DNA from: a virus
Length of the DNA: 64,000 bases
Virus record (IMG/VR): IMGVR_UViG_3300045988_085724
Span: 1 to 64,000 of that record
Direction: 5' to 3' (one strand)
The notes under the pieces are model-generated. The model searched no databases and was not told the origin of the DNA. It saw only the letters and a program-made list of their open reading frames with translations. Below, in pieces: positions 15,046 through 18,000 of this stretch; positions within the stretch are counted from its first letter, which is position 1; the number at the start of each line of letters is the position of its first letter. The translations under genes and the position numbers were made by a program.

Positions 15046-18000
15046 TTAATTTCCTCCTTTACAATATTTTTTCATTTCTTTAGCTTCTTTCATATCTTCG
15101 TCGCTAAACAATTCAAGCTGATTTATATTATCAAATGTAGAATCTACCGACATTAAATCAGACAAATCATATTTATCAGTTTCAAGAGTTAATTGGAATT
15201 CGTCGTATAGACCATGAATATATTCTGCTAAAGTTCTATACATGTTTAAATACTATTTATGATTCATCATAAAGTTATAGTCTGACAAGAATTTTTTATC
15301 TACTACTACACCTATTTTATTGTAGATTTCGTAGCCATATCCCAAATAACCTCCATCAAAGTAATGCTCCATAATTTCGCCTGCAGTTTCATTAACAGCC
15401 TTTAATTCTTTTATAAGATTTTCAACTTCTTCTTGTGACATGATAATAGTTCCTTTGATATTAGCAGCATCGTTATTGTGTTTAGTTAATGCGTACAAAG
15501 CGTTCAATAAATCTCTTTCTGATAAATTATTATCTTTCATAACATCAAACAGATCACTATCTTCATCTACATGTATATGTAATTTCTGTATTACTTGACT
15601 AGCGGAATCTTTACCAATCCTACTGGTAGTATAACCTATATCAAAATACTTCTATATTACATCTATGTATTCCTGATAGTTCTTGGCTATTTTTTTAATA
15701 GTTGGCTTATTCAAACCAGAATCTGTAAATCTATTCTGCTTGAGTGTACCATCCTCATTATAATAATTTAACATTCTATCTGTATTATGATGAGCATAAC
15801 AGTATACGCAAGAAGACGCACAATTACTGTTGTATCTTAATAAGTCAGTTTTTCCACCATAACAAGCACATTCTGGTCTAAAGTTATTGTTTCCAGTAAG
15901 TTTATTTGGTATATGTGTGCCTAACATCTTATTAATTGCATTTACACTTAGACATCCTTCTATACTTATACCATCCATTCTACAAGGCTCGGCACATGAT
16001 GATAAATCTAAATTATATTTCTTGGCGATGCTTAACATTTGTCTTGCAATGCCTTCTATTACTTCTTTTTTAGCATGCGTAAAGTAGAATCCAGAGCTGT
16101 TTCTATCGAAATATTTCGAATAATCATATCCAAGTTTTTCCATAAATTGAGCTGTAGTTTTATAATAATCTAATACAGAAAATCTTACGTGTTTTAGTCC
16201 TAATTCACTAGCACGTTTCATTAGACTATCTACTTCAGTCATATTAGTAACACCAGGAACGATTGGGTCTATTCTCAATGTAACATATTCTGGATCTAAT
16301 CCTTGTTTTATGAAATCACCAATGCGCTCAATCATGTCTTGCCATTTCATAACGCCAGGCTCCCATTTAGTATTACCAAGTGTAGTAACACTAAAATGAA
16401 TAATTTTAGGTTTATCCAACTATAATAACTCTTTCATTGGAAGTCCGTCATGTTTGGTTATTAAATATAAAGCATCAATATCCTCATACTTAATCGGATT
16501 TTGCTTATAATCTAAGAATTCATGACTTCCTTTTGCCCAATCCTATATCATCTTTGAGAAGAATGCAGGATCTGTATGTTCGGATGCAACAGCGATTCTA
16601 GGTTTAGTATCATTTCCAGTAAACGGATGTAGCGCAAGTATTTCTGCATTAGTTAATATAGTTTTATTAGAATTTAATGTAGAAACTTGTTCTGAAATAG
16701 TTCCAAATTGATCTGTATCATGCTGATTTAGTGGGCCATTTAATGTTGCTTTAGTAGCATCTTTATCAACATGTTTATACAATTCTTGTACTTTCTGTTT
16801 TAGATATTGATATAACTTAGGTGTTCTAGTTATAGTAATATTAGAAATACCAGAGTTAAAGAATCCATCTGCTCCACCAATAGCTAATCTTTCATAGTTA
16901 CCAGTATCCCATTTATCCATAATATCTTGTATCTCCTGGTCAATTACTTTCTTGAATTCAGCAAAATCATTATCAGTCCATCTACCTTTTTCACGCTTAT
17001 ATTCGCCATGGAACCAACGCTGTGTACTTAACGGCATAGCATTGTCCAGTCCACGTATAGTAGCTTGAGTTACTGTAGGATAATGTTTATCTTTACCATA
17101 TTTCTTAGCGTATTCAGAATTCGGATCTATTAATTTACTGCCACTATCTCTATCTGTATTATCTGTAAATATATATAACGTTTTTCTATCGTTCTCTACA
17201 GCTTGTCTAGTATATAATCTGGTTATAAATATCTTAGATGATACTGGTGGACGTAACGAAGCAAATTCATCTCTAATCTTAGTAAGAATTCTGCTAAATC
17301 TACCATTATCTTCTTCTTTTCCATCTCTACCGATATGTGTAATCTAACGATCTCCTGTTGATACCAATTCTTCTCTAGCAGATTCATTTTGTTCAAAAGA
17401 TCTACGCATCAAATCTTCAAGTATATCATCAGATATCTTATCCCATTCTGTAACATTTAAACCTTGTATACTTTGTCCTATCTTACGTGCTTCTGCACCA
17501 GATGCTTTTTGCAAAGCATTTAGTATACGAACGCCTTCATCAGTAAATTTAGTAATCTTTCCACTACTGTCACGAATTATATACTTAAGTCCGTTTGTAT
17601 ACCATAATTTACATGCCTAGAACGCTCCTTCTACAGTCTTAAATTCTCCTATACGTGTAGTAAACGGTCGCTGTGCAAAATTACTTAATGCTATGTTATC
17701 ACCAGTACCATAATATACATTAACAGGGCCTGTTTGTTGTGGCTATTGTTCAGGTGCAGAATCTATAGGATTGATATTTTCTGCAGGCATTCCTACATAA
17801 ACTTTTGCTATTGCATCAGATAATTCAGGTAACCTAGTTTTAAGGTCATCTAATCGTATAATGTTAGAGTTTAGATAATCTATAACTCTATTAATACCTG
17901 CGGTATAATCAAAGTTTGCATATTCAATACGTTCATTTTCTGCGTAATTAAAATGCCATCCATATTCATATATGTTGTTCCGTTTATCTGAGCTGGTATA

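Follow-up and report, generated by a model that had tools for sequence, protein, structure and literature searches.

In bacteria, DUF1848 is an accessory gene of UG25 methylase-reverse transcriptase (RT) systems (Mestre et al., 2022). Among radical S-adenosylmethionine (SAM) enzymes, spore photoproduct lyase (SPL) and gp53 of Pseudomonas phage M6 were the only ones known to act on DNA when the latter was described; gp53 has been shown experimentally to be a radical SAM isomerase acting on DNA and installs a protective hypermodification post replication (PMC8989533). In DNA, NADARs strip guanine of ADP-ribose, and DarTG1 is counteracted by phage NADARs (PMC11543638, PMC11125620, PMC11257639). 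Giant phage proteins in which several conflict-related enzymatic domains are strung together have been described as polyvalent proteins (Iyer et al., 2017; PMC5512222), with no mention of DUF1848, NADAR, radical SAM or crAss-like phages. The giant-gene block of crAss-like phages has been described as a transcription gene block (Yutin et al.), and DFDxD is given as the defining motif of their virion RNA polymerase (RNAP) in a preprint (Drobysheva et al., bioRxiv 10.1101/2020.03.07.982082). Here, we describe a DUF1848 domain encoded in the first 64,000 nucleotides (the window) of the IMG/VR virus record IMGVR_UViG_3300045988_085724, where it forms part of a giant TAG-recoded open reading frame (ORF) that also contains the RNAP module. 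By sequence comparison, the window belongs to a crAss-like phage of the Suoliviridae (Oafivirinae), close to Cacepaovirus cr131_1. The identity of the domain as DUF1848 and its in-frame fusion to the giant protein are, in our judgement, practically certain. With regard to function, the chances appear evenly balanced that the cassette is an iron-sulfur (Fe-S), probably SAM-dependent, DNA-acting counter-defence effector carried on a virion-delivered polyvalent protein.

DUF1848 and its giant carrier protein

The window copy matches the Pfam model PF08902 (DUF1848) over model positions 36-262 of 262 with an E-value of 3.9e-25 and 89.6 bits (gathering cut-off 30.5), and the PADLOC model RTasDUF1848 over positions 4-240 of 242 with an E-value of 6.2e-26, in agreement with an initial annotation that had proposed this family from the sequence alone. 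All motifs quoted in that annotation are present in the order it gave, and the motif CASSCVYC lies exactly where it had been placed (Table 1). The cysteines are conserved as well: in alignments of 9 and 65 homologues, which comprise crAss-type fragments and stand-alone proteins merely ~30% identical to them and contain the window copy or its 54-57% identical homologue P0004, seven cysteines are invariant, distributed over SSC(AE), GC(LS), CxC and CX3CX2C, and all seven are kept in the window copy (C5723, C5737, C5765, C5767, C5781, C5785 and C5788 in ORF-frame numbering, i.e. Met-based numbering plus 4). T.D, TK.D, the E in K.EPG, R.DP in RIDP, S and Y after strand 5 and the R before CxC are also invariant, and the window copy retains every invariant residue of both alignments. 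It shares sequence family, length, motif order and the C-terminal cysteine cluster with DUF1848/RTasDUF1848 proteins, but represents an internal cassette of a 6034-amino-acid (aa) phage protein instead of a stand-alone ~250-aa RT neighbor, and the phage versions are extended N-terminally by a 'KTIL(S/T)NEE' linker and C-terminally by 'YYNEDGTLK.N.FT'. As its context is a phage virion-gene block, with NADAR, DUF7831 and an ART-PolyVal ORF adjacent, the window copy was not assigned to UG25.

The carrier ORF on the minus strand contains 62 in-frame TAG codons, no TGA and no TAA other than the terminal one; over the same span, the remaining two minus strand frames contain 200-373 TAA and 69-323 TGA codons. 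It belongs to a TAG-recoded block encoding virion proteins. TAG read-through is confined to the minus strand block at 8552-61870; the plus strand ORFs at 67-8440 lack internal TAG and use the standard code, and the one at 67-807 terminates at TAG. No suppressor tRNA was found within the 64-kb window, whose sole tRNA is tRNA-Leu(TAA) at 4478-4564. When read with the standard code, the DUF1848 region is split into ORFs of 255 aa (15652-16419) and 164 aa. Since the first ~60 residues of the domain, which include the invariant T.D and TK.D, lie upstream of two TAG codons, DUF1848 is complete only with TAG translated.

That the carrier contains an RNAP, as initially annotated, agrees with the crAss-type DFDID motif found in the same ORF in the context ITGSDFDIDHLY. 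Because the RNAP region has no Pfam, PHROG or PDB sequence match, its assignment rests on DFDID, synteny and recurrence in relatives. By analogy with other crAss-like phages, the giant protein is presumably packaged in the virion. Like phi14:2 gp66 and N4-like virion RNAPs, it is a large, presumably virion-packaged protein with a DFDxD motif, and it is located in the transcription gene block of Yutin et al.; it differs in being about three times longer, in its extra enzymatic cassettes and in having no detectable sequence similarity to any chain of a solved structure.

Among deposited sequences, 'uncultured phage cr131_1' from macaque faeces (Suoliviridae, Oafivirinae, Cacepaovirus) is the nearest relative, with ~90-95% nucleotide identity over the whole block, and the giant ORF is colinear with its gp50 and gp48 at about 90-94% nucleotide identity (blastn). 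The cr131_1 genome contains a 911-bp insert (30204-31114 of contig L003, equivalent to NC_055902.1 60203-61113) exactly inside the polymerase catalytic motif, between ...ITGSD and FDIDHLY... (window 20148/20149). The insert encodes the LAGLIDADG_2 homing endonuclease gp49 (Pfam E-value 4.3e-22), which identifies it as an intron-like element, and its presence divides the gene into gp50 and gp48. In the window phage, the allele is uninterrupted.

In cr131_1, 60 bp take the place of a 960-bp stretch that coincides exactly with the DUF1848 module; identity on either side is ~94% (blastn). The window protein reads ...NSNKTIL/TNAEIL... (DUF1848) ...NKPTI/KKIAKNY... across the two junctions, and the cr131_1 protein reads ...NSNKTIL/GYLIEHKELLQSTTQFTKT/KKIAKNY...; KTIL(S/T)NEE is the conserved linker ahead of the module in all phage homologues. 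As DUF1848 is precisely absent from this ~94% identical phage, it is accessory, and as remnants of both module ends are kept in cr131_1, the latter looks like a deletion. A recent foreign insertion into the window phage was rejected in view of these remnants and of the GC content of the domain (0.33), which equals that of the flanks. Across the junction from DUF7831 to DUF1848, the window is colinear with L021, an independent metagenomic contig of ~70% identity, and the fusion is therefore not an assembly artefact.

The initial annotation had located the domain at the C-terminal end of the giant protein. It is indeed near the end, but stops ~220 residues earlier and is followed by a conserved 198-aa tail. 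Many otherwise divergent DUF1848-bearing giant proteins have a cysteine within their last one to six residues (15049-15072 in the window), with endings such as ...HCKGE, ...YCKGGK, ...KICK, ...NNCK, ...KFC and ...KMC (P0039, P0074, P0054, P0056, P0088, P0040 and others). This C-terminal cysteine may be a packaging, processing or attachment signal.

Table 1. Positions of the DUF1848 domain, its conserved elements and its surroundings in the window.
Feature	Position	Strand	Details
Giant TAG-recoded ORF, RNAP module and accessory domains	15046-33150	minus	6034 aa; ATG 33148-33150; TAA 15046-15048
DFDID, catalytic metal-binding motif of crAss-type virion RNAP	20137-20151	minus	residues 4334-4338
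NADAR domain	17263-17712	minus	residues 5147-5296; PF08719 E-value 1.6e-9, 38.6 bits (cut-off 35.1); phrog_1017 E-value 4e-13; jackhmmer boundaries
DUF7831 domain	16771-17232	minus	residues 5307-5460; PF25176 E-value 6.3e-9, 36.2 bits (cut-off 27); jackhmmer boundaries
Stretch of 960 bp replaced by 60 bp in cr131_1	15698-16657	minus	blastn and protein junctions
DUF1848 domain with phage-specific N-terminal linker and C-terminal extension	15703-16602	minus	residues 5517-5816; Pfam-matched core 15793-16509
In-frame TAG within the domain	16543-16545	minus	between the SEHTDPAFF motif and the next strand
In-frame TAG within the domain	16420-16422	minus	aligned to Q, E or K in homologues
Two further invariant Cys	15952-15996	minus	SSC(AE) 15994-15996; GC(LS) 15952-15954
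CAC, invariant CxC pair	15862-15870	minus	13 residues upstream of CX3CX2C
CASSCVYC, CX3CX(aromatic)C motif	15799-15822	minus	three invariant Cys; from alignments
In-frame TAG directly after the domain	15652-15654	minus	
C-terminal tail of 198 aa	15049-15642	minus	ends ...KKYCKGGN; conserved in cr131_1 and P0075

Fold and remote relatives of the domain

The structure of DUF1848, for which a prediction had been suggested in the initial annotation, was modeled on P0004, a 348-aa homologue, using the 65-sequence alignment as input. The AlphaFold2 model (mean predicted local distance difference test score 86.6, predicted template modeling score 0.88) consists of six beta/alpha units, in keeping with the partial (beta/alpha)6 TIM barrel of the radical SAM superfamily, followed by a cysteine-rich tail. 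In a Foldseek comparison of this model against the PDB, SPL accounted for seven of the ten top matches (best E-value 2.5e-3, probability 0.99-1.00), and the single strong match among viral models was the equivalent piece of the crAss-like phage cr272_1. On the sequence level, Pseudomonas phage M6 and related phages gave tblastn matches in their 'DNA repair photolyase' genes, and a profile from an alignment of four such M6 gp53-like proteins was aligned to DUF1848 by hhalign with 95.1% probability and an E-value of 3e-8 over 179 columns, extending from K.EPG to TCAE and into the cysteine tail. A 'DNA repair photolyase' PHROG (weak match, E-value 4.6e-5) and the PA0069 radical SAM model (E-value 5e-4, 19 bits versus a cut-off of 360) cover strands 3-5 only, and the Rv2578c radical SAM model scores 14.6 bits versus a cut-off of 430. 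No significant match to a curated radical SAM model (PF04055, PA0069, Rv2578c) was obtained, and the significant radical SAM link is the profile-profile match to gp53-like proteins only.

Based on the Foldseek matches to SPL and the hhalign match to gp53, DUF1848 appears to be a remote relative of the DNA-acting SplB branch, and the modeled structure and the profile alignment support, at the level of remote homology, a fold of this SPL/SplB branch of radical SAM enzymes. In common with SPL (PDB 4FHC) and M6 gp53, DUF1848 has a homologous barrel core with K.EPG, RIDPxxPG, FS..D.Y and TCAE, as well as a CX3CX(aromatic)C motif. It differs from both in that this motif is C-terminal instead of forming an N-terminal beta1-CX3CX2C element, and in four extra invariant cysteines.

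Cassettes around DUF1848 and recurrence of the fusion

The window ORF contains further cassettes in the order NADAR, DUF7831 and DUF1848, followed by the 198-aa tail, with NADAR located ~220 residues upstream of DUF1848. DUF7831, between the two, is another uncharacterised domain. The next TAG-recoded giant ORF (8552-15043, minus strand, about 2164 aa) opens with an ART-PolyVal ADP-ribosyltransferase (ART; PF18760, E-value 2.1e-15), which is matched as two stretches; the gap apparently coincides with a second indel relative to cr131_1 (14179-14720, 541 bp versus 130 bp).

The suggested survey for the same fusion or a stand-alone homologue yielded both kinds. A profile search of 1.84 billion cluster representatives identified 2133 DUF1848 relatives, 303 of them below 1e-30, and dozens of the best profile matches are proteins of 2000-7200 aa with DUF1848 at widely differing positions. 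Domains were mapped with local profiles in 64 large DUF1848 proteins, one per 50%-identity cluster. The RNAP module is present in 45 of these (38 of the 47 with at least 2500 aa), accompanied by SLOG-like domains (29 proteins), NADAR (22), a PIF1-type helicase (20), DUF7831 (7) and ART-PolyVal (3). The domain order is shuffled, and the accessory block stands either before or after the polymerase. Small NADAR-DUF1848, Macro...DUF1848 and DUF1848-RNase H proteins also exist.

DUF1848 is very probably an accessory cassette of a polyvalent-type virion protein. The window protein resembles polyvalent proteins (Iyer et al., 2017; PMC5512222) in that several conflict-related enzymatic domains are strung together in a giant phage protein: RNAP, NADAR, DUF7831 and DUF1848 occur in one ORF, and ART-PolyVal is encoded in the next ORF and in relatives. 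The carrier here is the virion RNA polymerase itself, in which it differs from those proteins. The presence of NADAR in the same polypeptide and the existence of two-domain NADAR-DUF1848 proteins connect the domain with phage NADARs (T4 gp30.3 family, which counters DarTG1). NADAR is, unlike DUF1848, a hydrolase without a metal cluster, and this comparison informs the context and not the chemistry.

The fusion had been regarded as undescribed, which agrees with the literature searched; it is not peculiar to this phage, since at least 45 representative large proteins combine DUF1848 with the RNAP module, and it is found again in many lineages of crAss-like phages. The full-text literature searched yielded no description of DUF1848 in crAss-like giant proteins, and none of an ejected phage protein with an Fe-S or radical SAM domain. 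None of the mentions of 'DUF1848' in this literature is functional, 'PF08902' was not found, and the N4 virion RNAP literature refers to radical SAM only in passing, concerning an HExxH motif. Sequence databases already hold many such fusions with precomputed Pfam labels; the fusion is common, and undescribed in the searched literature.

The closest stand-alone DUF1848 proteins (~245 aa) are encoded on gut contigs, the longest of which measure 300-390 kb, in a fixed neighborhood of NAD synthase, DUF1848, a hypothetical protein, HSP70, DnaJ, NUDIX, a hypothetical protein, IF3 and sigma-70 (metagenomic contigs L004, L005 and L008-L014). These contigs are probably huge phages, including one deposited as a contig of a 'Paludibacteraceae bacterium' metagenome-assembled genome. 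A DUF1848 module 78% identical to P0004 is located on L019 (CAVAON010000001.1, 88 kb), which is assigned to an 'Anaerovoracaceae bacterium' bin and probably represents a crAss-like phage whose contig was binned together with a bacterium. With regard to DUF1848 loci in bacteria, the P0124 protein search returned two proteins, and a contig scan returned two loci, one of which is a probable phage contig.

Possible functions of the DUF1848 cassette

As a counter-defence effector, DUF1848 would be produced by in-frame translation through the recoded TAG codons as one cassette on the giant virion RNAP protein. Its cysteines would bind at least one [4Fe-4S] cluster, and its SAM-type barrel pocket could act on DNA, as in both characterised relatives. 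The effector might then protect or repair the entering phage genome, e.g. through direct reversal of a host-inflicted base modification, and could cooperate functionally with a NADAR-type activity that removes ADP-ribose from DNA. We consider Fe-S binding likely, true radical SAM chemistry a little short of an even chance, and DNA as the substrate in counter-defence a tentative proposal. A DNA-acting Fe-S effector is favored because SPL and gp53 act on DNA bases, the partner domains are DNA or nicotinamide adenine dinucleotide (NAD)/ADP-ribose enzymes, and the barrel appears to keep the pocket motifs of its SAM-using relatives.

The weakest steps of this proposal are the radical chemistry, the substrate and the timing, and several observations weigh against it. 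The Foldseek TM-score (template modeling) for SPL is just 0.33 over ~176 columns; the PDB sequence search with the 65-sequence profile did not return SPL, and a single-sequence PDB search likewise gave nothing useful. Pfam Radical_SAM (PF04055) remains below threshold (E-value 0.22), DUF1848 lacks the N-terminal beta1-CX3CX2C element that is canonical for radical SAM enzymes, and in the full-length hhalign alignment, the C-terminal cysteines face the additional cysteine-rich tail at the C-terminus of gp53 and not its SAM cluster. The radical SAM likeness proposed in the initial annotation stands, for the domain, as remote homology (SPL by Foldseek, gp53 by hhalign), but not as a Pfam match or as a canonical cluster loop. 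The RNAP region does not match any solved structure by sequence, including that of the phi14:2 RNAP, if deposited, and the link to NADAR and the other partners is guilt by association. The biochemistry of any DUF1848 protein was not found in the literature searched. Furthermore, at least partial unfolding is expected of a tail-ejected protein, and an Fe-S cluster would be lost in the process; virions also meet oxygen. As a cluster would hardly survive packaging, oxygen and tail passage, it might be reconstituted in the host, or the domain might act late in the producing cell.

The missing N-terminal element raises the question of where a SAM cluster would sit. DUF1848 might be a degenerate radical SAM relative that has lost the N-terminal cluster loop and SAM cleavage, with the C-terminal cysteines forming an auxiliary or structural Fe-S or zinc site and the barrel binding DNA or a nucleotide, for non-radical chemistry or binding only. 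The first strand of DUF1848 and SE(H/R)TDPAF line up with strand 2 and SSFTDPF of gp53, in a colinear match that is by itself not significant, and the domain appears, from this alignment, to begin at the strand-2 equivalent. The colinear hhalign alignment likewise pairs TCAE with TCYE and the two cysteine tails with each other, and gp53 has a canonical CTVGCAFC at residue 125 besides its tail. When the C-terminal cysteine segment of three family members was moved to the N-terminus, their PA0069 and Rv2578c scores barely changed in an NCBIfam scan, and the artificially permuted sequences gained nothing against radical SAM models. On the other hand, the isolated segment C-x13-C-x3-C-x-Y-C-Y can be aligned gap-free with RPC-x13-CTVGCAFCY, the N-terminal element of gp53 (score 19.2, E-value 4.7e-4), a better fit than that of the isolated DUF1848 C-terminal segment to the gp53 C-terminal tail (score 11.5, E-value 0.06); the spacing of 13 residues is 14 in other DUF1848 subgroups. 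The aromatic residue before the third cysteine, typical of SAM clusters, is shared with CMGHCHYC of SPL and CTVGCAFC of M6 (PMC8989533). A further point against degeneration is that E(P), RIDP and S..Y, the barrel motifs conserved in the alignments described above, occupy what we take to be the SAM-binding places of radical SAM enzymes. Overall, we consider a degenerate relative rather unlikely.

The ungapped segment alignment suggests a circular permutation of DUF1848. In the most far-reaching version, which we regard as improbable and present as a conjecture, DUF1848 would be a circularly permuted radical SAM enzyme with its strand-1/cluster element at the C-terminus, stapled by a second, four-cysteine metal site; delivered by the virion RNAP, it would reverse by radical chemistry a DNA base modification beyond the reach of the NADAR and Macro hydrolases, and the same family would be used defensively by UG25 RT systems. 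If true, permuted DUF1848 would join SPL and gp53 as a third known kind of DNA-acting radical SAM enzyme, and would give the first known example of an Fe-S enzyme delivered through phage ejection.

Action after ejection is itself a step that may be doubted, as the domain could instead work late in the producing cell, modifying phage DNA or some other component prior to or in the course of packaging, and be merely tethered to the virion protein. The giant ORF is probably made late, since it lies within the TAG-recoded block encoding virion proteins and not among the standard-code plus strand ORFs; M6 gp53, the closest characterised relative, installs its hypermodification after replication, and the cytoplasm in which the protein is synthesized is a place where an Fe-S cluster is easier to maintain. 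However, thymidine hypermodification partners (5-hydroxymethyldeoxyuridine kinase, aGPT-Pplase and a pyridoxal phosphate enzyme) did not turn up in non-exhaustive scans of parts of the window, a DNA modification pathway is not expected to vanish cleanly between 94% identical phages, and the co-fused ART-PolyVal, NADAR and PIF1 domains are typical of injected polyvalent effectors (PMC5512222), all of which makes late action improbable.

A role as an offensive effector that damages or modifies host DNA or RNA, or consumes SAM, to shut down the host during phage transcription is very unlikely. In bacteria, the family serves UG25 RT defence systems as an accessory and possibly effector gene, and polyvalent proteins do carry host-modifying enzymes such as ARTs, but NADAR and Macro, the partners with which DUF1848 recurs, act in reversal and are not toxins, and neither characterised relative destroys DNA, their activities being repair or decoration. 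Lastly, the interpretation of the segment as a separate small gene (the 255-aa ORF), a pseudogene or an assembly chimera instead of a part of the giant protein was rejected as having next to no probability: the region is broken under the standard code and no suppressor tRNA is present in the window, but the latter covers only 64 kb of a genome that, judged by cr131_1, comprises ~97 kb, and the hypothesis is nearly refuted by the TAG read-through over 18 kb without internal TAA or TGA, the invariant residues upstream of two TAG codons, the dozens of database proteins with the same in-frame fusion and the identical junction in L021.

The DNA-acting Fe-S effector favored here would be of a known kind, i.e. 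an effector cassette on a virion-delivered polyvalent protein, and its mechanistic side is potentially more novel. CrAss-like phages are the most abundant human gut viruses, and to our knowledge it is largely unknown how they pass host defences at entry. On their virion polymerase, these phages repeatedly carry an uncharacterised, cysteine-rich and SPL-like domain, beside domains that undo DNA ADP-ribosylation. This domain presents the puzzle of an oxygen-sensitive metal-cluster enzyme that would have to work after being packed into a capsid and threaded through a tail, and the window phage and cr131_1 provide a natural pair with and without the domain for comparison. For the family, DUF1848 gains a concrete and testable context in DNA, NAD/ADP-ribose conflicts and early infection, which ties the phage domain to the use of the same family in a bacterial reverse-transcriptase defence system.

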